44,326 nucleotides of DNA from positions 1 through 44,326 of the IMG/VR virus record IMGVR_UViG_3300027852_000014; one strand, 5' to 3'. The notes under the pieces are model-generated. The model was not told the DNA's origin. It worked only from the letters and a program-made list of their open reading frames with translations, and did not search any database. Of this stretch, positions 1 to 23,684 are shown in pieces. The DNA is from a virus. Numbering within the stretch: position 1 is the stretch's first letter; each line of letters opens with the position of its first letter. The translations under genes and the position numbers were made by a program.

Positions 1-127
1 TACTTATCCTACGTTGTATTGTAAATTTATTAACAGTGATAGAATCACAGTTAGTTACTCTGCTTCAGATAGAACAGCAACAAGTTCTTTGAACGGAAAT
101 GGCGCGGCTTCTATTATCCATCATCAA
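1..127. repeat. Terminal direct repeat copy 1 (identical to 44200..44326); overlap of a circular contig
   Basis: Read directly: the first 127 nt recur verbatim as the last 127 nt. 127 is a common maximal assembler k-mer. Confidence 0.95.
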
Positions 128-1978
128 GGGTCAACAGGACTTAAACAGTTTTCAAATTACACTCCATCTAATATAGGTGGGTACATAAGAGTAAATTCTA
201 TTGGCGCGGTAAATGAAGAGTTTGAAATAACACGTGCATCAGTTGATCCTGGGCTGGGAAATGATGAGAAGTTGGCTACAAATACGCCTGCACAACATGT
301 CCCGCAAGAAGAGTCTGTTTTTGCTGTAACTATTGACGGCGAGCACAATATCTTAGATAACGGAGAACCAACAGATCTTCCTGTAAACTTAAACATAAAC
401 AAAGATTACAGTGGAAAATGGAATGGTGAACGTTCATATGTGACAAAGTTCACAACGAGCAAAGTATTTAATGCTGTTTTATTCGGACCCGCTGCACCAG
501 CTGGATTAACTGCGCATGATCGCGCTGGGACACTGCTATGGTCTAAAAATTGCTCAGATCTTCAAACAGCAGCAGGGTCGCCAGATGTTCAAAGAATAGA
601 AGATATGGTCGCTGATGAAACGCATGTTTACATAATGACTTCTAGGGTAACACAATCAGATGATTTTACTGTATTTCAAATCGATCATACAGGAACCATA
701 TTAAAATTCTACACTAAATCAGGCCTATCAAGTAAAGGGGATCGACTTAGAACGGATGGACAAAATGCATATGTGACTCAAAAAAATCAGTCATTTACTA
801 GTATGTTTATGTATCGCTATGATTTTTCGACTGACACTGCTTATGATGTAGATTTAACTGATATGGAGTTTGCATGGATCACTCCAACTGGCTCAGATGC
901 AAATGCATATTCAGGTACTTATTTTGAGATATCAGATAACGGAACAGATTACTATGTTTGGGTAAACGTGGATGGTGGAAGTGTGGACCCTGCTCCTGGT
1001 GGAAAGACTGCCGTTCAAGTAGATATTAACTCAACAGACGATCAAAAACAAATTTCATTTAAGATTGCCCAAAAACTACGGGGAGTTACTGGCGGGAATG
1101 CATTTGCTGCAGAACATAGAGGATATCTTATTTTTATATACAGAATAAGACCTGTGAATTCTGTATGGACGATTGGAACCTTTCCAGGAAACATAACCGG
1201 CACGAACACTGTCGAAGCTGTACAAAATTTTGGATTTTCCAGCAATAATAGACTGACAATTGTTTTCGAGAGAGGAATGTACATAGAATACAATAAAGCG
1301 GGAACTGTAGGCAATGAATACGCGCAATCAACTGGACGAACAAAGTCGCTCGTTGGCAATGGTGCTGATATTGTTCTTGCAAACGATTCTTCTTATCTGG
1401 ATAATCCAACTGGGTTTAATGAGCTTAGAAACACGTTTATAGGAAAGTCTTTTTGGATAAGATATTATGTGCGATACAATGAAAAGACATATTCAATCAA
1501 ATCACAGGCTGGCGGTCTTGGTGACCTTAAGATAGGAAGCTTTGATTTAGAGCCTTATTGGGATGGGTCTAATTATGTATTTTCGACTGCGTCCGATAAT
1601 TCAGGATTATTTATTTCGGAAAACAAGCTTTCGGAGGCACAGTCTGGTGGAGTAGTTTACGATATTGAAGACGGAGATGTATTTATGTTGACTCCTTGGA
1701 ATGTCTATGTAAATGAGACTCTGGACGAGGCTTATCTTGATATTGGAGACAGGTATTTAATTGTCCACTCAGATAAGCGTCCAAAGCTATTCATGTCACC
1801 AGATGGCGGAGAAACTATAAGAACGCCATTTGAAGTCCAGGAAGGGGATCAACTATACATTATCCCTGAAAAGTTTGGCAGTGACCTAAGTGGGGCAGAA
1901 AAGATTTCATTTAGATATTTACAAGATCAGACCGTGCCAAATGTTGGTTCAGGATCTGGCTCAGGATCAGGGAGTTAA
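1..1978 (+). CDS. Tail fibre / receptor-binding protein, C-terminal part of a gene that starts at 43631 and crosses the circular junction (about 848 aa in total)
   Basis: Open frame from base 2 to TAA 1976-1978. It is in phase with the stop-less ORF 43631..44326 through the 127-nt overlap. It is the last gene of the tail module and ends in (GS)5. Confidence 0.85.
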   Translation, partial: TYPTLYCKFINSDRITVSYSASDRTATSSLNGNGAASIIHHQGSTGLKQFSNYTPSNIGGYIRVNSIGAVNEEFEITRASVDPGLGNDEKLATNTPAQHVPQEESVFAVTIDGEHNILDNGEPTDLPVNLNINKDYSGKWNGERSYVTKFTTSKVFNAVLFGPAAPAGLTAHDRAGTLLWSKNCSDLQTAAGSPDVQRIEDMVADETHVYIMTSRVTQSDDFTVFQIDHTGTILKFYTKSGLSSKGDRLRTDGQNAYVTQKNQSFTSMFMYRYDFSTDTAYDVDLTDMEFAWITPTGSDANAYSGTYFEISDNGTDYYVWVNVDGGSVDPAPGGKTAVQVDINSTDDQKQISFKIAQKLRGVTGGNAFAAEHRGYLIFIYRIRPVNSVWTIGTFPGNITGTNTVEAVQNFGFSSNNRLTIVFERGMYIEYNKAGTVGNEYAQSTGRTKSLVGNGADIVLANDSSYLDNPTGFNELRNTFIGKSFWIRYYVRYNEKTYSIKSQAGGLGDLKIGSFDLEPYWDGSNYVFSTASDNSGLFISENKLSEAQSGGVVYDIEDGDVFMLTPWNVYVNETLDEAYLDIGDRYLIVHSDKRPKLFMSPDGGETIRTPFEVQEGDQLYIIPEKFGSDLSGAEKISFRYLQDQTVPNVGSGSGSGSGS

Positions 1979-1980
1979 GA

Positions 1981-2904
1981 ATGATTAAAACAGCAGTATT
2001 TAGTTTGTGGACAAAGCCACAACAAACAGCAGCAGAATTTGACAATCACATTCCAACGTCAGGTTATCCTGACCTGGAGTGCTTGCTTAACTCTGCGGCG
2101 CTATCCGTTCGTCAGGCTCGCAAGCATTTTGATGAGGTTCGTTTTTACACAGACAATGCTGGGAAGGCGATGTTATGTGATGAGTGTGGGATCTTTAAGG
2201 AAGAAGAAGTCACTACACTTTTTGAAACGTATGAAGACTTCATGCCTATGATGGATATTCACAAAGATCTTTGGAGTTATGGGAAGCTCGCTGTGTACTC
2301 ACAGATGGAAGTACCTTTTGCCCACATTGATCTTGACGCTTATTTGTTTGCGCCGTTACGTCCTAAGGCAGACAGTGCTCGCATTATTGCTCAGGGATTA
2401 GAGAGTGCCGACTGGAGGCTTTACAACACGTCACGCGCATACTTTAAGGAGAATGATTTCATTCTTCCAGCAGAGTACCACCGTTATGAAGCAAACGTAC
2501 GCGAAAAAATCGCTTACAATTGCGGTATATTTGGTGGGAATGATTTAGAACTGATTAAAGAGCTTGCAGACGGAGCGTTAAAAGTATTCCGTGACAATTA
2601 CGACAAGATCATTTTACAGGATCCTTCTATGATGTCGGACTTCAACGTTTCTATTGAGCAGTATATACCAACAACTGTTTTACATAGCAAGGGTATTCGT
2701 CCTGAACTAATCATGAAGAATAACTATGATCCGCGTGAATGGAAAAATAAATGCTTTGGATGGCTGCACTTCTTTGGGGAAGCTAAATTTAAACGGAGCA
2801 ATAACAACGCAATTCGCAATGCTTTGCGGTCACGTCCGTTTTCTAAGTTCGCAAACGAGCCAGTTGTTCAAGATTGGGTGGCTATGATTGATAGGCTCGC
2901 ATAA
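1981..2904 (+). CDS. DxD-motif glycosyltransferase-like protein (recalls the DUF6734-type family)
   Basis: 307-aa ORF with SD GGGAG and an ATG 2 nt after the fibre stop. Motifs: FSLWTKP, VRFYTDNAG, PFAHIDLDAYLF (hydrophobic run + DxD). Confidence 0.55.
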   Translation: MIKTAVFSLWTKPQQTAAEFDNHIPTSGYPDLECLLNSAALSVRQARKHFDEVRFYTDNAGKAMLCDECGIFKEEEVTTLFETYEDFMPMMDIHKDLWSYGKLAVYSQMEVPFAHIDLDAYLFAPLRPKADSARIIAQGLESADWRLYNTSRAYFKENDFILPAEYHRYEANVREKIAYNCGIFGGNDLELIKELADGALKVFRDNYDKIILQDPSMMSDFNVSIEQYIPTTVLHSKGIRPELIMKNNYDPREWKNKCFGWLHFFGEAKFKRSNNNAIRNALRSRPFSKFANEPVVQDWVAMIDRLA

Positions 2905-2906
2905 GG

Positions 2907-3542
2907 ATGAATACAGTTTTTAACATTTTTAAAAAGGTGGGCTTCGATTTTATATTGAAGCTCGTCCTGTTTATAAGATCTGCCGTCATTCATAAGCAAG
3001 ATGTTAGGATGCTTAAGGATCATCGGTTCTGGTCGTTTATGAGGCAGGAGAGAAAAGAGGACATCCCGTCATGGATCATTGAGGATAAAGGGAGAAAGGA
3101 TTTGGCTGACACATTCTTTCCTATTAAGGTCGTTATATTTGAGGATGCAATGAAGGATGTTGTTCGTCGATTTGAATATTCAAAAGTAATTGAATTCCAT
3201 CCTAATAAAATACGTGATCTGTGCGCAATATATGATAAGCGAGCTATAGATGAATTCGATAAGAAATTTTCTTTTCTACGTGAAAGAAACAACTCAATGC
3301 GCATATTTGTTGAGAAGTTTGGGGAGCTGCATAGGCCTGCCATTGAAAAGACAGTTGTTCGCTTTGAGAGCATTTTTGAAATGGAGCATCTTTCAAAGGC
3401 AGATCAAATCTACATGATGTTAGAGACGTTATACTGGGCATTCAAATTCAGCATGCCTTCGGTGAAGAGTGCAATGGATACTTTAAACGGAACGTTAAGC
3501 GCTGAATTAGACAAAATATATGGAGAGAGGGATGCCAAGTAA
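2907..3542 (+). CDS. Hypothetical protein (accessory; hydrophobic N-terminus)
   Basis: 211-aa ORF starting 2 nt after the previous stop. No motif recognised. Confidence 0.65.
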   Translation: MNTVFNIFKKVGFDFILKLVLFIRSAVIHKQDVRMLKDHRFWSFMRQERKEDIPSWIIEDKGRKDLADTFFPIKVVIFEDAMKDVVRRFEYSKVIEFHPNKIRDLCAIYDKRAIDEFDKKFSFLRERNNSMRIFVEKFGELHRPAIEKTVVRFESIFEMEHLSKADQIYMMLETLYWAFKFSMPSVKSAMDTLNGTLSAELDKIYGERDAK

Positions 3543-3675
3543 AACAGATACGTACATAATAAACAGCCTTAAGATATTCAATAAAGGTTGGCGCGCAAAG
3601 TGGATTGTGTATCTTTCTGTGGCCACAATGATTTTCTTTATAGCATTCTTTGCTATGGTGTTATTCTGGCACAAC

Positions 3676-3704
3676 TTGACAAGTGTTTAAATAGACATTA
3701 TAGT
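3676..3704 (+). promoter_or_regulatory. Sigma70-type promoter TTGACA-17 nt-TATAGT
   Basis: -35 at 3676-3681, exact 17-nt spacer, -10 at 3699-3704. Predicted TSS is about 3711. Confidence 0.7.
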
Positions 3705-3710
3705 AAGTAT

Positions 3711-3868
3711 GTGGATGTGGCGGAAGCTAGGGCAGGTGCACCTTATATTCTACAGACAGGATCTGGCGTAAGGGGAGACCCCGACTAGGGTGAGATGGTC
3801 TATTTATGCAAGAATGTATTTAGGTCGATGAAACCAAGACAAGTAAAAGCACCCCATCCACACCTTTT
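3711..3868 (+). ncRNA. Candidate structured RNA B (stand-alone sRNA or leader of the lysis genes)
   Basis: Starts at the predicted TSS. The 5' arm TGTGGATG (3710-3717) pairs with CATCCACA (3855-3862) and is followed by CCTTTT. Internal helices and locally high GC are visible, with no credible ORF. Shares boxes with 10998..11119. Confidence 0.5.
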
Positions 3869-3889
3869 AACACATAACAGAGTTTCTGT

Positions 3890-4591
3890 TTGAAAGTTTT
3901 AACTATGTGCATTTTCTGCACTATCTTAATGGGGAATGCAATGACTAATATTACTGGGTTTTCCTACGCGATGTCTTTTATAAAAGAGGCCGAAGGCGAA
4001 TATGTAAATCATCCTAACGACAAAGGTGGTGAGACATGGGGTGGAATTGCCCGCAACATGCATCCTAAGTGGAAAGGATGGGAAGCCGTAGACCTTGCAA
4101 AAGAAAAGAACAAAACTAAATCAAGTTTAAACAAGTCCCTAAGATCTAATAAGATGCTGAAAGTAATGAAGCTTGAATTTTATGAAAAAGAATTTTGGGA
4201 TGAAATAGACGCGCTTCCTTTTAATTATAAAATAAAAGTATTTCTATTTGACTACGCCATCAATAGCGGGCACGAGAATGCGTATAAGGCTCTTCAGCGC
4301 GCGTTAGGCGTAAAGGCTGATGGAATTATAGGCAGCCGTACTATCGGTGCGTACAAAGACCAATATAAGCCCTCTTTACTGTATTCTCTTAAGCAAAAGA
4401 GGGATCAGTTTTACAATGATATTGTGAAAAGCAATCCTTCGCAGGGAGTATTTCTAGATGGATGGCTGAATAGGTCTGACAGCGCTTTATGTTTTGGCAT
4501 GGATTGCGGTATAGAGATTGCAAAGAAAGACACTATACTGAAAAAGGCTTTAGAGCTTGCCGTTTTAATTATTAATAAATTCAAGTCTTGA
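3890..4591 (+). CDS. Endolysin: GH108-type lysozyme domain plus PG_binding_3-like domain
   Basis: EAEGEYVNHPNDKGGETWGGI matches the GH108 EGGY..D..D.GG.T..GI signature. FDYAINSGHENAYKALQRALGVKADGIIGSRT matches the PG-binding repeat. Start is ambiguous (TTG 3890, ATG 3905, 3929 or 3941). Confidence 0.85.
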   Translation: MKVLTMCIFCTILMGNAMTNITGFSYAMSFIKEAEGEYVNHPNDKGGETWGGIARNMHPKWKGWEAVDLAKEKNKTKSSLNKSLRSNKMLKVMKLEFYEKEFWDEIDALPFNYKIKVFLFDYAINSGHENAYKALQRALGVKADGIIGSRTIGAYKDQYKPSLLYSLKQKRDQFYNDIVKSNPSQGVFLDGWLNRSDSALCFGMDCGIEIAKKDTILKKALELAVLIINKFKS

Positions 4592-4616
4592 CAAGGAAGA
4601 CTCAAAGAAATACTAT
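4588..4616 (+). promoter_or_regulatory. Candidate promoter TTGACA-17-TACTAT overlapping the endolysin stop
   Basis: -35 at 4588-4593 within the conserved GTCTTGACAAG; -10 at 4611-4616. Confidence 0.5.
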
Positions 4617-4675
4617 CAAAGTGTTATATACTATGATTTGTTGGAATTTCTAAACTCCCTTATCAGGTTATGGAG

Positions 4676-4700
4676 CCCTCTGTTCTAGCAGAGGGTTTTT
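4676..4700 (+). terminator. Rho-independent terminator
   Basis: CCCTCTG (4676-4682) / CAGAGGG (4689-4695), loop TTCTAG, then TTTTT. Confidence 0.8.
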
Positions 4701-4756
4701 ATTGCATACAAAACTCCAACAATACAAATATAATATGTCACATAAGCTAGTATGTC

Positions 4757-4786
4757 TTGACAAGTTGATTAATTATGTTGCATAAT
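4757..4786 (+). promoter_or_regulatory. Promoter TTGACA-18-CATAAT
   Basis: -35 at 4757-4762 within GTCTTGACAAG (an 11-nt copy of 4585-4595); -10 at 4781-4786. Confidence 0.6.
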
Positions 4787-4810
4787 ATATATGCAAGATC
4801 CCGACGGTAA

Positions 4811-4836
4811 AGCCCTTCTTAATTGAGGGGCTTTTT
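4811..4836 (+). terminator. Rho-independent terminator
   Basis: AGCCC (4811-4815) / GGGCT (4828-4832) followed by a T-run to 4836. Confidence 0.6.
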
Positions 4837-4845
4837 CATACATGA

Positions 4846-4874
4846 TTGACAGTGCATTCATCATTTGTTATAAT
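4846..4874 (+). promoter_or_regulatory. Consensus promoter TTGACA-17-TATAAT for the holin operon
   Basis: -35 at 4846-4851, -10 at 4869-4874. Followed by SD AGGAG (4893-4897) and ATG 4904. Confidence 0.8.
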
Positions 4875-4903
4875 AAACGTCTAATCCAAAACAGGAGTTT
4901 ATT

Positions 4904-5131
4904 ATGGGAGTTATTACATTAATCTTATCAATCGTTAAACTATTACCAATCGTTGCTATTAATTTTATCGCATGGTTAATCTATGGATGCGAAATGGTTT
5001 TATTGCCAATCGCACAAATCACGCCAACAGTAAAAGACAATGCATGGATCGCTAAGATTGTTGCATGGTTAGGCGGATTACGTTCATATGTGAACATCTT
5101 TTCTGAATGGATTAAGAAACTTGGACTGTAA
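4904..5131 (+). CDS. Putative holin (small multi-TM membrane protein)
   Basis: 75 aa with hydrophobic segments VITLILSIVKLLPIVAINFIAWLIYG and AWIAKIVAWLGGL. Strong SD. Adjacent to the endolysin. Confidence 0.6.
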   Translation: MGVITLILSIVKLLPIVAINFIAWLIYGCEMVLLPIAQITPTVKDNAWIAKIVAWLGGLRSYVNIFSEWIKKLGL

Positions 5132-5198
5132 GTGGAAAAGCTAACATCGCTTTTAAAGACTATCGGGTATCCTTTGCTTTATGTGAAGGGTCTCCTAG

Positions 5199-5429
5199 AT
5201 GGTAAGCGTTCAGCGGAGAAAAAGATTGAAAAAAAGAATTCTAAGCTTATTAATGCTGTTAAGTATTGGCGGATGCGTAAGTAATTATCCAGTTGATCTT
5301 TCGGAGGTTATACGCATATGTGATGGGGATTCAGAGTGCTACGAATACCTTGATCGGTATAATACGTGCTTAGAAGAAACATCTTTAATAGCTTCCCTAT
5401 GGACTGATTGTAAGAAAGAGGCCCTTTAA
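5199..5429 (+). CDS. Cys-rich lipoprotein (possible o-spanin-like or exclusion lipoprotein)
   Basis: Basic n-region, h-region ILSLLMLLSI and lipobox IGG-C. The mature part of about 51 aa has 5 further Cys. Confidence 0.6.
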   Translation: MVSVQRRKRLKKRILSLLMLLSIGGCVSNYPVDLSEVIRICDGDSECYEYLDRYNTCLEETSLIASLWTDCKKEAL

Positions 5430-5444
5430 CAGGCCTCTCTTTTC
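5417..5444. terminator. Bidirectional terminator between the convergent arms
   Basis: AGAGGCC (5417-5423) / GGCCTCT (5432-5438) with a T-rich tail. Lies between plus gene end 5429 and minus gene end 5445. Confidence 0.75.
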
Positions 5445-5663
5445 TTAACGTTCATTCTTCATTGCTTCTTTATCTGCTTGCATTGCACTGTATACATTCC
5501 AAGCTTCATCGCTATCTGTGTACACATCTTTTGAGTCTACAAACAGTGTGAATTTAGAATTCACTTGAATTGCAGAAATTCCGTTTTGTTCGTGTTTAAT
5601 TAATTTTCCGGAGTACAATTCGTCTCCATTAATTGCATAAACAATGTTTTTAGGCTTTGACAT
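5445..5663 (-). CDS. Hypothetical protein
   Basis: 72-aa ORF, last gene of the minus arm. No obvious SD. Confidence 0.55.
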   Translation of the reverse strand: MSKPKNIVYAINGDELYSGKLIKHEQNGISAIQVNSKFTLFVDSKDVYTDSDEAWNVYSAMQADKEAMKNER

Positions 5664-5681
5664 AATAATAGTTTTAAATGG

Positions 5682-5849
5682 TTAATTAATCATTTTTTTA
5701 GCTCTTTCTTCTGAGAAATGTATCTCTGACGGCGACACTATTACTGTATGAGTTGAAGATACCCTCACGTGTACGCAGTTAAACTTTGTTTCTGTTACTC
5801 TGCCAGAGTAAATCTCATTCAAAATCACTATAAATACTTGATTACACAT
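5682..5849 (-). CDS. Hypothetical small protein (55 aa)
   Basis: ORF below the track cut-off, translated by hand (MCNQVFIVILNEIYSG...). No SD. Confidence 0.3.
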   Translation of the reverse strand: MCNQVFIVILNEIYSGRVTETKFNCVHVRVSSTHTVIVSPSEIHFSEERAKKMIN

Positions 5850-5883
5850 AATGTAAAAATTTAAGTTTAATAATAAGTAATTC

Positions 5884-6060
5884 TTATTTAGCTATCTTAA
5901 CAACTCTGTTTAAGTATTGTGTTGTTGAAGCGTAACGTATTCTTGATATGGTTCCTTTTTTAGATATTCGGTAGATCTCCCCATCCTTATTCTTAGCGAA
6001 TCTTGATCCACCGTATGTAAAGAGTGTTTTGTTTGGAACTGTTTCAAATGTGTACTGCAT
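5884..6060 (-). CDS. Hypothetical small protein (58 aa)
   Basis: Hand-translated (MQYTFETVPNKTLFTYGG...). Its ATG overlaps the upstream stop (TAATG). Confidence 0.45.
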   Translation of the reverse strand: MQYTFETVPNKTLFTYGGSRFAKNKDGEIYRISKKGTISRIRYASTTQYLNRVVKIAK

Positions 6061-6224
6061 TATCTTTCTCTTTCTGTATGCATTGCTATTAATGCTTTTT
6101 GATTACGTATATCAGTGCGTCTTTTCATTTCGTCCCATGCAGCCATGTATGTTTCAGGATCTATATCTGGATCTGTCTCGTCTTCTATTGCACACAATTC
6201 TTCCCATGTCAGATCCTCATACAT
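6060..6224 (-). CDS. Hypothetical small acidic protein (54 aa)
   Basis: Hand-translated (MYEDLTWEELCAIEDETDPD...). Strong SD AAAGGGAG. Confidence 0.5.
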   Translation of the reverse strand: MYEDLTWEELCAIEDETDPDIDPETYMAAWDEMKRRTDIRNQKALIAMHTERER

Positions 6225-6225
6225 T

Positions 6226-6396
6226 TTATCTCCCTTTCATTTTCATATTATCGTGTGCAATATCTATCATAGCAGTCTGCATAATGACTACAAGGAGCCC
6301 TATTAATACAGGGTCTTCTTTTGATACTAGCAATGCAACAGATGTGTACCCAGCGCCGTAAAAACATAGTAGTGCTGTATGTAGCTTTCTAATCAT
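6226..6396 (-). CDS. Small membrane protein (56 aa, 2 hydrophobic segments)
   Basis: Hand-translated (MIRKLHTALLCFYGAGYTSVALLV...). SD AAAGGA. The ATG lies inside the end of the upstream ORF. Confidence 0.5.
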   Translation of the reverse strand: MIRKLHTALLCFYGAGYTSVALLVSKEDPVLIGLLVVIMQTAMIDIAHDNMKMKGR

Positions 6397-6580
6397 TAAT
6401 ATCCTTTAGATCTTCTGTTACTCTTACTAGTACAGGATTCCATTTCCTTATCGCATGCTCAGCCATTGGCAGCACCTTGTCATCCTCATGCAAAACAATA
6501 TTTATAAAATCCATATAGCTTTCGAGCACCTCTTTAAGACATTCAACAGCTGCAATCTTTTCATTATCTTTCATTTCCAA
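6389..6580 (-). CDS. Hypothetical protein
   Basis: 63-aa ORF with SD GGGGAGG upstream. Start is TTG 6580 or ATG 6574. Confidence 0.6.
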   Translation of the reverse strand: MEMKDNEKIAAVECLKEVLESYMDFINIVLHEDDKVLPMAEHAIRKWNPVLVRVTEDLKDIND

Positions 6581-6743
6581 AATGCCTCCCCATTAGTTTT
6601 TGTTGTTCACGGTCCTTGGTTCTTTCCATGTGACTGCCTACGTTTGATGTGTTATGCTTATGGTGTTTTCCATCTTTTTCGATTAGTGCTTCGAACTTTT
6701 TAAGATGATCGGACTTGCGTCTCATTCTGTTGTGTTTGCTCAT
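6564..6743 (-). CDS. Hypothetical basic protein (59 aa)
   Basis: Hand-translated (MSKHNRMRRKSDHLKKFEAL...). SD AGGAG. ATGA overlap with the upstream stop. Confidence 0.5.
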   Translation of the reverse strand: MSKHNRMRRKSDHLKKFEALIEKDGKHHKHNTSNVGSHMERTKDREQQKLMGRHFGNER

Positions 6744-6850
6744 CGCTCTTTCTCCTGCTTAATCAGTTCAGCAATAGCTTTTTCTATAAGCTCCGCCAAT
6801 TCTTTCAATACTTCTATAGGCGTTGTTGTTTTGTCTCCTTCTTTTGGCAT
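6740..6850 (-). CDS. Hypothetical small protein (36 aa; the longer 6949 start would overlap the upstream gene)
   Basis: Internal ATG 6850 lies 1 nt after the upstream stop (6852-6854). The ORF-track version starts at 6949. Confidence 0.4.
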   Translation of the reverse strand: MPKEGDKTTTPIEVLKELAELIEKAIAELIKQEKER

Positions 6851-6851
6851 A

Positions 6852-7112
6852 TTATCGCTCGTTCCCGTTAAAAATCTCATAGTCACTCTGACTAAGGTAT
6901 TGGCTGTCAATGCCCGAGTCCTTCTCAAGGTCATCCTGCCCGCTCTCAAGTCTATTCTGTTTTACGTGCTCAGCAGCAAGCTCGTTTGACATTCTATCAA
7001 CCTCTTTTTGCTGTTCTTCGATATAGATTTTTAATAGAAATAAATACCCCTTGCATGTCTTGTCTTTCATCATATCCATTTGGTGTTTAACTTCATCTAA
7101 GTATTTACTCAT
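6852..7112 (-). CDS. Hypothetical protein
   Basis: 86-aa ORF with SD AAGGAG. Confidence 0.65.
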   Translation of the reverse strand: MSKYLDEVKHQMDMMKDKTCKGYLFLLKIYIEEQQKEVDRMSNELAAEHVKQNRLESGQDDLEKDSGIDSQYLSQSDYEIFNGNER

Positions 7113-7303
7113 GTCAAATCTCCTTGTTTTTGATTAGCTGGTACAACGTCATATCTTGATTTATCATGTGTTTTTATTATTACCCTTCCATTAAAAATGG
7201 CAATACCTATTCCAGCATCCTCTAGACCTTTGTACGTTGTTACGTATTTTTCTTCCTCTTTGTCAAAAATAGTATATCCATGACAGTCATTGTGCTTATC
7301 CAT
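7109..7303 (-). CDS. Hypothetical protein
   Basis: 64-aa ORF with SD AAAGGAG and a 4-nt overlap with the next gene. Confidence 0.65.
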   Translation of the reverse strand: MDKHNDCHGYTIFDKEEEKYVTTYKGLEDAGIGIAIFNGRVIIKTHDKSRYDVVPANQKQGDLT

Positions 7304-7304
7304 T

Positions 7305-7778
7305 TTACTGCTCCTTTAAATATTTTTCCCGAATCTTTTCTAAATACTTCCGTCCATCCTCTTTTCGCTCTTTGGAAGACTCTTCTGTTATATATCTTTC
7401 ATAAGAATCAAGAACACTAACTTTGAGATCCATAAGATTAATATGGCCATTCATAAACTGGTTCCCGTAATAGGAAAGATCCTTACACAGAGCGTCTTGA
7501 TGATTCCAGACTGAGTTAAGTCTTGAGCTCGTGGAGCGCGCTCCACACTCTATACATTCATATATTGCAATTCTAAACAGAAAATCATGTGTGCTAAAAC
7601 AAAATACTTCCTTCATATTATTAGGAAATGCATTGCTAGACATCTTTGCATGACGGAGTCGACACTTAGACATCTTAACTTTTCCGCATTTAACGCAAGA
7701 GCTCCCAACATATCCTATTTTAGAGCATACCGCCTTCTTTTGATCATGTTTGCAAAATAATTTACCTATAATTCCCAT
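7305..7778 (-). CDS. Cys-rich hypothetical protein (putative zinc-binding)
   Basis: 157 aa with SD AAAGGAG. Contains CVKCG and CIECG pairs. Confidence 0.65.
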   Translation of the reverse strand: MGIIGKLFCKHDQKKAVCSKIGYVGSSCVKCGKVKMSKCRLRHAKMSSNAFPNNMKEVFCFSTHDFLFRIAIYECIECGARSTSSRLNSVWNHQDALCKDLSYYGNQFMNGHINLMDLKVSVLDSYERYITEESSKERKEDGRKYLEKIREKYLKEQ

Positions 7779-7790
7779 TCTATCGCTCCT

Positions 7791-8099
7791 TTATCCCTTC
7801 CATTTTGGCAGCCCTCTAAAGTCTCGTGGGGCTGTTACCATTTTTTCTTTACCGCATATGCCACAAGTCCCTCTCCAGCATCCTGGGGAATGTCCTTTTG
7901 GCATTGACCCATACTTATTGCCGCAGTCGAAGCATACTTCGTCAGGATTTTTGCTTTTATAAGTCCATCCTTTTTTCTCAAGCTCCTCGGAAACTATCTT
8001 TGCGCTTAGATACCCTTCTAATCCGCTTGAGTATATACAGTAATGCTTGTTCTTGCGGTCTTTGTATATTGTGTAGTCTTTGTACTCTGTTTTTTCCAT
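7791..8099 (-). CDS. Cys-rich hypothetical protein (putative zinc ribbon)
   Basis: SD AAAGGAG before ATG 8099 (the track ORF extends to 8138). Motifs CFDCG ... CWRGTCGICGK. Confidence 0.65.
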   Translation of the reverse strand: MEKTEYKDYTIYKDRKNKHYCIYSSGLEGYLSAKIVSEELEKKGWTYKSKNPDEVCFDCGNKYGSMPKGHSPGCWRGTCGICGKEKMVTAPRDFRGLPKWKG

Positions 8100-8100
8100 C

Positions 8101-8241
8101 CTACCGCTCCTTTTCTGCTGTTGACAATACCTGCTCATTAATCATTCTAACGTACATGTTTCTAAGCAATACGTATTCGTCACTTGTTTTATCTTCTATT
8201 TCATTCATTTTAATTTCTAATGTGTCTAGTGTTTCGTTCAT
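8101..8241 (-). CDS. Hypothetical small protein (46 aa)
   Basis: Hand-translated (MNETLDTLEIKMNEIEDK...). SD GGGAGG. Confidence 0.45.
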   Translation of the reverse strand: MNETLDTLEIKMNEIEDKTSDEYVLLRNMYVRMINEQVLSTAEKER

Positions 8242-8244
8242 ACC

Positions 8245-8397
8245 CTACCTCCCTATGCTTAATTCTTGTATTTGTTGCTGTATTATAGATATTTCCATCT
8301 CATGGTACTTTTCTAACAGCTCCCAGTACTCATCACAGTCCTTGTCTTCAAAGCTGTTTATGATTGCTTCTAATTCTTTTAGATCTGTGTTGTTCAT
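8245..8397 (-). CDS. Hypothetical small acidic protein (50 aa)
   Basis: Hand-translated (MNNTDLKELEAIINSFEDKDCDEYW...). Confidence 0.45.
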   Translation of the reverse strand: MNNTDLKELEAIINSFEDKDCDEYWELLEKYHEMEISIIQQQIQELSIGR

Positions 8398-8410
8398 TTT
8401 ATCTTTCTCA

Positions 8411-8674
8411 CTATATCTGTTCTATCGTTATCTTTCCTATCTCGCATTTTTGCAGTTCAATTCTTTTCTTGGCTACTCCTCTCTTTAAAAGCAAGCGTAT
8501 GTGTTTCATTGCAGTTGATTTAATCTTCCACGACGTGAACGAGTTAGGTGACGTTCTATACCTAAATAAAGCAACGGTCCTTGTCCCGTCCTCATAGTAT
8601 GTATACATTCCTCCCTCTTGGATATTTTTGTAAAACAGACCATTTACTTTAATTCTAAAAAAAGTGTCGTTCAT
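8411..8674 (-). CDS. Hypothetical protein
   Basis: 87-aa ORF in the same-strand array. Confidence 0.6.
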   Translation of the reverse strand: MNDTFFRIKVNGLFYKNIQEGGMYTYYEDGTRTVALFRYRTSPNSFTSWKIKSTAMKHIRLLLKRGVAKKRIELQKCEIGKITIEQI

Positions 8675-8676
8675 GA

Positions 8677-9102
8677 TTAGTCCTTCAAAAGTTCAGGGTT
8701 TTCATGTATGCTTCCGATTATTTCTATTTCAGCTCTATCACATTGTATAAAATCGAATTCATAATCCACATAGCCTTTATAATCTTTATTTTTTACTTCC
8801 TTTAAAACAAAGCATGGGTTGCATATATCCCTTTCAACAGTCCTCAACGTTTTCTTGCCAATTATAGAATTAAACCTAACAACATCCCCCTCATAAATAA
8901 GCTTTCCGTTCTTGTCTTTTAATCCTGTGCATTGTTGGATTATGAGCCGCTCTTTATTAATTTCTGGTGCAACTGCATTACCAAAGTCCGAAAACAGATT
9001 CCCATTCTCTGCTATATAAAACAAGCCAATTCCATTATATGGATGATTATACTTATATGTTTTGTCTTTATCATCCCACACTCTAAACTTAAATCTATCC
9101 AT
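8677..9102 (-). CDS. YopX-family protein (paralogue 1)
   Basis: FKFRVWD N-terminus, QCTGLKDKNGKLIYEGD core and IIGSIHENPELL C-terminus. Confidence 0.8.
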   Translation of the reverse strand: MDRFKFRVWDDKDKTYKYNHPYNGIGLFYIAENGNLFSDFGNAVAPEINKERLIIQQCTGLKDKNGKLIYEGDVVRFNSIIGKKTLRTVERDICNPCFVLKEVKNKDYKGYVDYEFDFIQCDRAEIEIIGSIHENPELLKD

Positions 9103-9146
9103 CCCTCTACTCCTCTGTTTAATTTACTCATCGTTTTTGCCCATGG

Positions 9147-9332
9147 TTATTCCTCTATACAATCTAACATTCTTTTAGCTAGAGGAATCGCACCATTTTC
9201 TGGTTTGTGTTTTATTATTTTTCCACAATCAGTTTTATATAATGTAAACCCATCCTTATCTTGTTTTGCTTGATTAACTGCAGATCTAGCCATGATAGGC
9301 TCTCCATTAATTAATATTGCAACGGTTATCAT
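9147..9332 (-). CDS. Hypothetical protein
   Basis: 61-aa ORF with a G-rich SD. Confidence 0.6.
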   Translation of the reverse strand: MITVAILINGEPIMARSAVNQAKQDKDGFTLYKTDCGKIIKHKPENGAIPLAKRMLDCIEE

Positions 9333-9336
9333 CCCT

Positions 9337-9780
9337 TTACCCCTCTGTTTTAATCCACTGGATTGGTTGTGTGGCTATGCCTACGCGTTTAAATCCCCAA
9401 GAATTTAATTGTATTTCAAGTTCAGTTATGCTATTTAAATCTTTCACACTTTGAACATCTCCGTCATGACTAATCATCTCAGCCTCACCGTACTCAAAAT
9501 TTGATATATACAATGCTTCGCTTGAGTCGTTTATCCAAACGTCACCCACAGCTATATCACCACGAGGGATCTTTACTAGCTTGCCGTCGATTATTTCGTG
9601 GGTGATATTTATATACCCTATAGGCTTTGTATCTAATGGAACCTGATATGATTCATGAGATGTTATCACATAATAAAAATCGGTACCTCTGAATACTTTA
9701 TCGGCCGCAAACTCATAACCATTATCAGCTCTAATAATACTTCCCTCAACAGGTGTATCAATTCGTTCTAATGTTTTCAT
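9337..9780 (-). CDS. Hypothetical protein
   Basis: 147-aa ORF with SD AAAGGAG. Confidence 0.7.
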   Translation of the reverse strand: MKTLERIDTPVEGSIIRADNGYEFAADKVFRGTDFYYVITSHESYQVPLDTKPIGYINITHEIIDGKLVKIPRGDIAVGDVWINDSSEALYISNFEYGEAEMISHDGDVQSVKDLNSITELEIQLNSWGFKRVGIATQPIQWIKTEG

Positions 9781-10710: not shown

Positions 10711-10878
10711 TTATTCATCAGCTTCAACACTGATCTGCTCTTCATTTATTATGCAGTATCCACCAATTTCTTCTTTATCAGAAGGAGGATGTGCTTCTGC
10801 GCTGTATTCTCTGTCTGTCAAGCAAGTGCAGAGCAAGCACTTCTTATAATCAGGCATGCATTTACTTTCTTTTGCCAT
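10711..10878 (-). CDS. Small Cys-rich protein (55 aa)
   Basis: Hand-translated (MAKESKCMPDYKKCLLCTCLTDREY...). No clear SD. Confidence 0.4.
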   Translation of the reverse strand: MAKESKCMPDYKKCLLCTCLTDREYSAEAHPPSDKEEIGGYCIINEEQISVEADE

Positions 10879-10997
10879 TTTTTCTAGGTTTAATAATTAT
10901 AAAGCTTACAAGCACTTCACAGAATGCTTCAATGATCTCTTGTAATATACTTTTTTTAGTTTTCATATAGTAAGGTTTTAATAATAAGTTGTCTCAG

Positions 10998-11119
10998 TGG
11001 GGCGGTAGAGAATTTCACTCTACACGACAGCCTTCCTAGGAGCGTCCTCTGTTAAACCTTACGGCAACTCGACCACTATCTGCCCTGCTTTTTCGTGCGT
11101 CTTATTCCGCCACGCCCCA
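10998..11119 (-). ncRNA. Candidate structured RNA A (paralogue of RNA B)
   Basis: GC-rich 122-nt island between ORFs. Closing stem TGGGGCG/CGCCCCA. Hairpins GTAGAG-7 nt-CTCTAC and GGCA-14 nt-TGCC. Shares GTGGCGGAA, AGGGCAG, CGTAAGG and CTAGG with 3711..3868 in the same order. Strand is inferred from context. Confidence 0.45.
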
Positions 11120-11124
11120 ATTCT

Positions 11125-17805: not shown

Positions 17806-18384
17806 TTAGCAAAAATCTCTTAACCCCCTTGATCTAGATGGGTGTCTCATTTTTCTTATAGCTCTATTTTCAATCTGTTGGATTCGAGCCCTTGATATAT
17901 TAAAATAATCGCTAGCTTCTTTTATCGTTTCTCCTTCAAGGAACCTTCTTCTTATTATGTTTTCTTCCATTGGCGTAAGAGTAGATAAAGCGGTTGATAA
18001 TAAAGACTTAACCTCATCATTTCCAACGCGGGAAATCAGTTGATGCTCTCCATCATATCCCTGACTCTCAAGTAAAGGGACAGCTTCTTCAAAGTCCATT
18101 TCTATTTTATTAAAATTGCTATTAAAGCATTCTTCAATATGTCTCACAGGGAACAGGTCTGTATACTTGCATCCAAGAGTCTCTTCTATCTTGATAATAC
18201 TATCTTTTAATTTACCAGTTATTTTGCTATAAGGAGTTGACTTAAGGTTTAAAAAATCTCCTATAGTATTTTGCGTAACTCCAGAAACCCTGGATAACTC
18301 AGCAGATGTTTTAAACCCTTTTTCGTTCATTTTTTGTATGAAGTAATTATTCTTTACCTTTATCTCAATCATATAGTCTTTCAA
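17806..18384 (-). CDS. Sigma-70 region-4 domain protein fused to an N-terminal XRE-like HTH
   Basis: C-terminus LTPMEENIIRRRFLEGETIKEASDYFNISRARIQQIENRAIRKMRH matches the region-4 pattern. N-terminus GFKTSAELSRVSGVTQNTIGDFLN. No region-2 motif seen. TTG start. Confidence 0.7.
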   Translation of the reverse strand: MKDYMIEIKVKNNYFIQKMNEKGFKTSAELSRVSGVTQNTIGDFLNLKSTPYSKITGKLKDSIIKIEETLGCKYTDLFPVRHIEECFNSNFNKIEMDFEEAVPLLESQGYDGEHQLISRVGNDEVKSLLSTALSTLTPMEENIIRRRFLEGETIKEASDYFNISRARIQQIENRAIRKMRHPSRSRGLRDFC

Positions 18385-23240: not shown

Positions 23241-23538
23241 TGTGGAGCCATCCTCCATTTTGCCTCCACAAAACAGCGTTTTGCCTCCACACTTGCCTCC
23301 ACACTCTCGCTTCGGTCTAGTTTTGTTCACCCAAAAATCTATGTATGTGGAGCGTTATGTGGAGGATGGAGGTATTTTGTGGAGGATCAGTGGAGGCAAA
23401 TGTGGAAGATTAAACCATTGATAAACGGCTATTGTGGAGGCATGGAGCCTTTTTTTAAATTGAGTTATGTTTTATGTAAAAGTAAAAGAAATATATATAC
23501 CCCCACAACGACTTGAGTTTTGCCTCCATGCCTCCACA
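23241..23538. repeat. Iteron array (TGTGGAGG / CCTCCACA) with AT-rich core: putative replication origin or master operator
   Basis: Full 8-mers (at most 1 mismatch), forward at 23241, 23346, 23358, 23378, 23401, 23433; reverse at 23263, 23284, 23296, 23531. Half sites at 23252, 23367, 23391, 23443, 23523. A 15-nt inverted repeat (23433-23447 / 23524-23538) flanks an AT-rich spacer. Confidence 0.65.
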
Positions 23539-23655: not shown

Positions 23656-23684
23656 TTGACATGCCATAACATATCTATTATAAT
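23656..23684 (+). promoter_or_regulatory. Perfect consensus promoter TTGACA-17-TATAAT
   Basis: -35 at 23656-23661 (TTGACATGC), -10 at 23679-23684. The ATG at 23691 is the 7th nt after the -10. Confidence 0.8.

Follow-up and report, generated by a model that had tools for sequence, protein, structure and literature searches.

In lambdoid phages a short non-coding RNA, the PR′-tR′ transcript, arises just before the lysis genes from a constitutive σ70 promoter, and Stx phages process this by-product to StxS, a 74-nt small RNA that binds Hfq (PMC7547250). This late leader (lambda 6S RNA, StxS) is the nearest functional analogy to the phage locus considered here, where a σ70-type promoter, P1, also lies directly ahead of lysis genes, with endolysin, holin and spanin candidates downstream of it. 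The lambdoid arrangement needs tR′, an intrinsic terminator that is strong, together with an adjoining upstream gene for a Q antiterminator; the locus here, in contrast, has no credible terminator, and none that is strong is found 70-200 nt past P1. The gene upstream encodes a 211-aa protein whose only assignment is to the family phrog_18926. It has no Pfam match, and so no match to an antiterminator family either, and it has no sequence relative in the PDB; with an AlphaFold model that is unusable (pLDDT 38), the idea that it is a Q antiterminator gained no support.

Other kinds of RNA also bear comparison. An intrinsic (Rho-independent) terminator is a compact GC-rich hairpin, with a loop of about 3-10 nt, and a U-rich tract directly after it, and the gene for an Hfq-type small RNA has its own promoter, a terminator hairpin with at least six U and a seed complementary to its targets. 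A stem at the very 5′ terminus slows the 5′-end-dependent decay of an mRNA, and the stabilizers familiar from the RNase E and RppH field, such as the ompA 5′ UTR, are small local hairpins. Here, too, a predicted helix would begin 0-2 nt from the 5′ end expected for the mRNA, but it encloses 131 nt and its stability is context-dependent. Riboswitches and attenuators share with this locus a leader that is long and structured, lying between promoter and gene; unlike theirs, the leader here matches nothing in Rfam, offers no choice between terminator and antiterminator, is not conserved and has no predicted effect on the accessibility of the translation initiation region (TIR). An N-terminal hydrophobic export signal is found on endolysins of the secreted or SAR kind (P1 Lyz, phage 21 R21 and fOg44 Lys44) and, as predicted from sequence, on the endolysin here, where an I/L-M-G-N/S-A stretch is kept across enzymes with GH108 and GH24 domains; a difference is that the h-region here is only about 11-12 residues long.

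The window, by which is meant the whole stretch of 44,326 nt that was analyzed, derives from metagenomes and looks like a complete myovirus genome of 44.3 kb. JGI 3300002180 and SRA SRR5248754 contain contigs identical to it and, as to microdiversity, the three public contigs of the phage do not differ over 1-9591. Structural genes are on the + strand at 23.7-44.3 kb and continue at 1-3.5 kb, early and replication genes are on the − strand at 5.4-23.1 kb, and the lysis region, which contains P1 and the leader, is the end of the + strand block (Table 1). Genes are tightly packed and, in a crude gene list, only three gaps reach 250 nt, the two of the lysis region and 10858-11124, plus a 540-nt control region. 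The GC content of 3711-3868 is 48%, whereas the genome has 38.6% and the other gaps have 27-40%.

Table 1. Features of the lysis region and of the related loci, with positions in the window unless a locus is named
Feature	Coordinates	Strand	Remarks
Gene of the phrog_18926 family, 211-aa protein	2907-3542	+	First of the lysis order; query that led to the related loci
52-aa membrane ORF	3532-3690	+	C-terminal hydrophobic helix (one TM helix); called in both independent assemblies; Shine-Dalgarno GGAGAGAGGG; followed by a gap, then the endolysin
Promoter P1, σ70-type	3676-3704	+	TTGACA 3676-3681, 17-nt spacer, TATAGT 3699-3704
Predicted transcription start	3709-3712	+	5-8 nt past the −10 element, from spacing alone
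5′ arm of closing helix	3710-3720	+	TGTGGATGTGG
Leader interior	3721-3851	+	131 nt, GC-rich, lineage-specific; no homologue found
3′ arm of closing helix	3852-3862	+	CCCCATCCACA; 10 pairs and one bulged U with the 5′ arm
CCTTTT	3863-3868	+	U-tract of the first-pass annotation; not credible as a terminator tail
Weak ribosome-binding site AACAGAG	3876-3889	+	In a small hairpin, ACAGA/TCTGT, abutting the start codon
Endolysin, GH108 and PG_binding_3 (Pfam)	3890-4591	+	Start TTG 3890; followed by a 312-nt gap
Endolysin residues 1-17	3890-3940	+	MKVLTMCIFCTILMGNA; probable Sec/SAR-type signal sequence
Mini-unit 1	4588-4616 (promoter); ~4675-4703 (terminator)	+	TTGACA-17-TACTAT; hairpin and U5; RNA of ~78 nt, z = −3.75
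Mini-unit 2	4757-4786 (promoter); 4811-4838 (terminator)	+	TTGACA-18-CATAAT; 10-bp hairpin and U5; ~46 nt, z = −2.84
Holin promoter	4846-4874	+	12/12 consensus, extended −10; feeds the holin
Holin candidate	4904-5131		75 aa, two-helix; after the 312-nt gap
Overlapping spanin-like ORFs	5132-5429		One with a lipobox
Terminator	5417-5438		Last of the lysis order
L014 endolysin N-terminus	1225-1263		TTG 1225; MRHLILITALPIIMGSA
L013 endolysin N-terminus	6693-6731		TTG 6693; MKKLFILLACFLIMGNA
L016 endolysin N-terminus	2007-2045		TTG 2007; MKKLFLLMAIPLIMGNA
phrog_18926 homologue, L013	6001-6603
phrog_18926 homologue, L014	547-1164
phrog_18926 homologue, L015	5001-5654
phrog_18926 homologue, L016	1299-1940

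The first-pass annotation of this stretch drew a near-consensus promoter, with transcription starting at about 3711, ahead of the endolysin gene. Its coordinates for the promoter are exact, genome-wide enrichment of such sites makes the promoter credible, and the start predicted from spacing falls nearby. Sites with at least 11 of the 12 σ70 consensus bases number 12 in the window, against 1.9 ± 1.4 (maximum 5) in 100 dinucleotide shuffles. Exact TTGACA-N16-18-TANNNT sites occur six times, all of them oriented with the neighboring genes, and at the TTGACA promoters 13082 (−), 20127 (−), 4846 (+) and 23656 (+) a gene starts within 0-26 nt. Because of this alignment with genes and closeness to them P1 is accepted as genuine, and transcription from it is predicted to begin at about 3709-3712. 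It sits within the last codons of the 52-aa ORF, and a promoter scan gave no second good promoter between it and the endolysin. Its leader of 179 nt is an outlier against the 0-26 nt of the other σ70 promoters in the window.

The extended −35 of P1, CTTGACAAG, is the same in the sites at 4587 and 4756. This near-palindrome, CTTG-N-CAAG, has exactly three copies in the window (3675-3683, 4587-4595 and 4756-4764), all on the + strand, each of them the −35 of a lysis-region promoter with non-coding sequence after it. TTGACATGC is common to three other promoters (13082−, 20127− and 23656+), and the distinction suggests that there are two classes of promoter or else that an operator overlaps the −35. 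Since the other two CTTGACAAG promoters, at 4588 and 4757, lead into a short non-coding stretch and a strong terminator, this promoter class may make small RNAs. Elsewhere, the 12/12 consensus promoter at 23656 stops 6 nt short of ATG 23691, the first + strand gene, whose 185-aa product has a weak sub-threshold match to HTH_17; no Shine-Dalgarno sequence precedes this ATG, and so the mRNA may be leaderless. A 192-aa protein encoded at 17806-18384 (−) contains a Sigma70 region 4 domain (E = 3e-15), shows HTH_3-like similarity as well and is possibly a phage sigma factor or transcription regulator.

The start of the endolysin itself, judged by comparison with related loci, is mis-called at ATG 3941 and the true start is the TTG at 3890. 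From the ATG picked by gene callers the ORF reaches a TTG exactly 13 codons earlier in 4/4 loci, and the 45% identity between the endolysins of L014 and the window begins at residue 1 of the TTG-initiated ORF. The motif M-[KR]-x-L-hydrophobic-[IL]-M-G-[NS]-A and the TTG start are kept in the four loci with two catalytic folds, GH108 and GH24; as the signal is kept across both domains it is taken to be real, and the start at 3890 with it. The product is probably Sec-exported or of the SAR type. Ahead of the TTG, AACA(A)GAG has an invariant position, about 7-9 nt away, in an alignment of the window with L013, L014 and L016, and it is weak compared with the AAGGAG typical of the genome. With both ribosome-binding site and TTG start conserved, 3876-3940 is ribosome-binding site and coding sequence and not RNA structure, and it is this that sets the length of the leader at 179 nt. 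The endolysin had been placed 22-70 nt downstream of the proposed RNA unit; of this range the 22 nt stands, as the gene with its conserved signal peptide starts at 3890.

The position of the start bears on the possibility that the leader is an attenuator or riboswitch-like device, in which alternative folds of 3711-3868 would sense a signal and so set the amount of endolysin and the timing of lysis. Such a device would be in keeping with a leader so long and GC-rich in a compact genome, and with predicted folds that switch with context, the CCCC of the 3′ arm having two possible partners, the 5′ arm and GGGG 3931-3934. The TIRs of the holin and the o-spanin are, besides, the two most structured of 86, so that RNA structure may matter in the cassette. 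However, GGGG 3931-3934 is coding sequence, the Met-Gly of the signal peptide, and not a Shine-Dalgarno sequence, and for this reason Shine-Dalgarno sequestration by the 3′ arm (CCCC:GGGG) was dropped. Opening the true TIR, 3875-3894, has a predicted cost of 6.1-6.7 kcal/mol from any 5′ end and in every upstream context, with an unremarkable rank of 11-33 among the 86 genes; its predicted accessibility is independent of the leader, which argues against translational gating and leaves the proposal that the unit gates read-through into the endolysin without support. Leaders of about 50 nt suffice in relatives, no terminator/antiterminator pair is present, no Rfam family matches even at E ≤ 10, no homologue of the leader was found in any collection searched, and an attenuator is accordingly seen as very improbable.

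Every motif coordinate given in the first-pass annotation for the arms, the CCTTTT and the four internal helices is correct, and in an RNAfold prediction for 3711-3868 three of the four helices of its rod-like fold have pair probabilities of 0.77-0.85, the exception being AGACC/GGTCT, which is disfavored at 0.09. The closing helix has a pair probability of 0.91-0.99 in 3711-3868 and in a P1-initiated RNA extending to 3960, and this is 0.17 when the RNA is extended to 4010 and 0.01-0.13 with an upstream start, so the helix is not robust across transcript contexts. Its beginning at 3710/3711, 0-2 nt from the predicted transcription start, is a coincidence that is only mildly unusual: 0.5% of positions carry an 11-mer whose reverse complement, allowing one edit at most, recurs 60-260 nt further downstream, a frequency that becomes 2.5% for an 8-nt window of possible start sites. 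The fold as a whole is no more stable than shuffles. The minimum free energy of 3711-3868 is −43.2 kcal/mol versus −40.0 ± 4.2 for shuffled sequences (z = −0.77; +0.11 for the − strand), and z is −1.3 for the rod 3745-3817, 0.0 for the whole leader and −3.4 for the next intergenic region, with −3.75 and −2.84 for the two hairpin units of the latter.

Termination at the CCUUUU is also not supported. A terminator scan made no call in 3711-3890, there is no local hairpin, and the sole adjoining helix spans 140 nt. As this helix ends at 3861/3862, a spacer of 2-3 nt (ACC or CC) follows and then four U only, and a simple T-tract weighting gives 0.7-1.1, against 4.35 at ~4675-4703 and 3.93 at ~4811-4838, the real terminators past the endolysin, which lie 0.8-1 kb further downstream. 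With no credible intrinsic terminator, the description of the unit as self-contained falls together with its U-tract termination. Rfam 15 at the gathering threshold gave zero matches in the whole window, and at E ≤ 10 only chance matches on the opposite strand (STnc240 at 17 bits and mir-198 at 13 bits), so that the unit matches no family at any threshold; ARAGORN found no tRNA or tmRNA.

These results weigh on the proposal of an independent small RNA, which would be about 155-160 nt long, made from P1 with a 3′ end at 3862-3870 formed by inefficient termination or by processing, and could be one of three small lysis-region transcripts from CTTGACAAG promoters that act in trans. The restriction of CTTGACAAG to three + strand sites, each before non-coding sequence, suits it, and the units at 4588 and 4757 do have textbook terminators (78 and 46 nt); the unit after P1, GC-rich and with a short U run adjoining its closing helix, has by comparison a weak tail (T-tract 0.7-1.1 versus about 4), an only adjoining hairpin that spans 140 nt, no fold signal (z = −0.8) and no Hfq-type 3′ end. 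Trans targets of the three putative small RNAs were sought in 86 TIRs and by genome-wide 10-11-mers, with nothing above chance; the best exact match to a phage transcript is 12 nt, which is by estimate about the chance level, and duplex energies show no outliers. Set beside a gene for a trans-acting Hfq-type small RNA, the unit thus has the promoter and lacks both the terminator and outstanding complementarity to phage TIRs, and the element is absent from relatives and from all collections searched. A separate small RNA at this site, as first put forward, is unsupported and distinctly unlikely.

The second lysis-region gap, 4588-4903, contains the two promoter-to-terminator mini-units and the consensus holin promoter. 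By the usual criteria the mini-units are better small-RNA candidates than 3711-3868. The holin and the lipobox ORF (5199) have the two most structured TIRs of the 86 genes at every window size tried. For the holin, AUAAUAAAC (4870-4878), located where its own promoter has the −10 element, is complementary without mismatch over 9 nt to GUUUAUUAU (4897-4905), which covers the holin ribosome-binding site through to the start codon. The predicted opening of the holin TIR is 6.0 kcal/mol from the holin promoter versus 10-10.9 kcal/mol in read-through transcripts, and on this difference only promoter-proximal transcripts would be well translated.

For comparative purposes close relatives of the phage are scarce, and it is nearly an orphan. 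The relatives nearest to its lysozyme come from Acinetobacter phages, and a host that is Gram-negative, with about 39% GC, would be expected. A k-mer-prefiltered protein search with the 211-aa and baseplate proteins returned the phage itself only, and k-mer and related-locus searches via the endolysin, DUF6734, baseplate and 211-aa proteins gave self or unrelated contexts, the endolysin matches being of ≤38% identity in contexts that lack a gap upstream. With the 211-aa protein as query, an exhaustive search by HMMER did find 17 remote homologues, and 15 of the 18 aligned sequences (these and the query) match phrog_18926, with none matching Pfam. Identity to the homologue is 34% in L014, 33% in L013 and 30% in L016, and in these three the family gene is directly upstream of the endolysin; in L015 it is two small genes upstream of a Peptidase_M15_3 gene. 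The proteins of the family are about 200-260 aa long, start with a helix that is hydrophobic or amphipathic and have two invariant motifs, F..H and N-G-x-L; the gene lies between tail-fiber and lysis genes in several unrelated phage types. The protein is a candidate lysis-cassette component, and a role as a T4 T-like holin or as a regulator is speculation.

The family gene's stop codon and the endolysin TTG are separated by 60 nt in L014, 66 nt in L016 and 89 nt in L013 versus 347 nt in the window, and no sequence alignable to 3721-3851 was found in these three loci. In L013 and L014 a TTGACT or TTGACA is at or adjoining the upstream stop codon, with TATAAA or TTAAAT 17 nt on; these −10 elements fail the rule of the scanner, and so conservation of the promoter is suggestive only. 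Over the segment from −10 to +12 the window (TATAGTAAGTATGTGGATGTGG) and L013 (TATAAATGTTATGTAGATATGG) are identical at 15 of 22 positions. The L013 and L014 leaders are about 50 nt long and each opens with a small hairpin, a few nt from the TTGAC[AT]-17-nt site, that is weak (z = −0.6 to −1.0); any conserved architecture of promoter and 5′ hairpin is to be read as three sequences compared by eye.

What sets the window apart is the longer stretch between the family gene and the endolysin. As first described, the unit in it is non-coding, 3691-3940 being empty in the gene calls of two independent assemblies, and the dismissal of ORF 3588-3788 was sound; another frame there holds the 52-aa ORF. 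The latter overlaps the 3′ end of the phrog_18926 gene by 11 nt, has no PHROG match and is absent from L013, L014 and L016, and together with the leader interior it appears to be one lineage-specific addition of about 290 nt. Several coding possibilities were considered and set aside. A leaderless 20-codon ORF at ATG 3709 (MWMWRK...) was dropped as L013 and L016 have ATG TAG at the same place; a small ORF at 3795-3893 and a − strand ORF at 3820-3921 have no homology; and TAG recoding that would join ORFs 3588-3788 and 3795-3893 was rejected, given how densely the standard code fills the genome with coding sequence.

Searches for homologues of the block gave little. Phage GenBank blastn yielded nothing with a 1.7-kb query and only chance matches of 23-29 nt with a 166-nt query. 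Exact 37-, 21- and 19-mers of the block, sought in IMG/VR, JGI metagenomes and GTDB genomes, gave a single 19-mer match, GGGGAGACCCCGACTAGGG, exact in the alphaproteobacterial MAG JANSWZ010000002.1 (L012, 355-373); as the similarity stops at 19 nt and a few such matches are expected by chance, by estimate, in 596 Gb, it is taken to be a chance hit. No peptide homologue of the interior was found in any frame, and neither the genome nor the loci compared have the block a second time. A MITE-like insertion was rejected, as there is neither a target-site duplication nor another copy.

Absence from relatives, with a gap that varies as 60, 66, 89 and 347 nt, and absence of a fold signal are what would be seen if the block had no function at the RNA level, its interior being leftover or inserted DNA, whether a decayed gene or a ~290-nt insertion along with the 52-aa ORF, and its closing inverted repeat a product of chance, at a level of about 2.5% once the choice of start-site window is allowed for, or else a site acting in DNA. 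The arms of that repeat, TGTGGATG, are one base off the iteron core TGTGGAGG, and three one-mismatch iteron cores lie inside 3710-3862, but about 30 others are elsewhere in the window. Insertion and decay also leave the traces just described wanting, namely a target-site duplication, a second copy and peptide similarity in any frame, and 130 nt of junk is rarely kept by such compact phage genomes. This reading is unlikely, though less so than the independent small RNA or the attenuator.

The iterons themselves form an array at 23241-23538, with about 12 TGTGGAGG(CA) in both orientations, in the 540-nt divergent control region that is flanked by a D5-type primase/helicase gene and the first + strand gene. 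Counting exact iterons on both strands, six are in the array and two elsewhere in the window, and the array probably serves as an origin or binds a regulator.

The favored explanation, held with moderate confidence, is that P1 drives an endolysin mRNA with a lineage-specific 5′ untranslated leader of 179 nt, and that there is no separate gene. Of the two alternatives offered at first, the cis-acting leader of the endolysin is in this sense the better, shorn of the gating of read-through. The endolysin mRNA would start at about 3711 from P1, a promoter of the host-σ70 type, and its first 10 nt would pair with 3852-3861 to give the mRNA a base-paired 5′ end, a stem that may stabilize it. RNA polymerase would not be released at the CCUUUU and would read through to a signal-peptide endolysin that is expected to be poorly initiated, given its TTG start, weak AACAGAG and ACAGA/UCUGU hairpin. 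The interior looks like the expanded loop of a short ancestral 5′ hairpin or, alternatively, like part of an insertion of ~290 nt that would also have brought the 52-aa ORF and P1. A function for the interior, as a processing site or a factor-binding site, is unproven, the hints being its GC content and its retention in a compact genome and nothing else; a 48% GC interior in a tightly packed genome of 38.6% GC does hint at selection for something. That it is a lineage-restricted regulatory RNA domain, clamped by the 5′/3′ helix and setting the level or timing of the secreted endolysin, is a doubtful proposition, as improbable as the attenuator. Such a domain could act as a sensor, bind a protein or be processed in the manner of RNase III substrates, and together with the two CTTGACAAG mini-transcripts it might add a layer of RNA to the control of lysis.

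In sum, this is an endolysin with its own σ70 promoter and a long leader, bearing no mark of a new class of RNA, in a lysis region where the density of promoters and terminators is unusual and next to a gene of the phrog_18926 family, which emerges as a consistent neighbor of lysis genes. Were the interior functional, a secreted endolysin would be under control at the RNA level, something for which documented cases are rare. An exported endolysin at low translation would alter how lysis is modeled for this group of phages.
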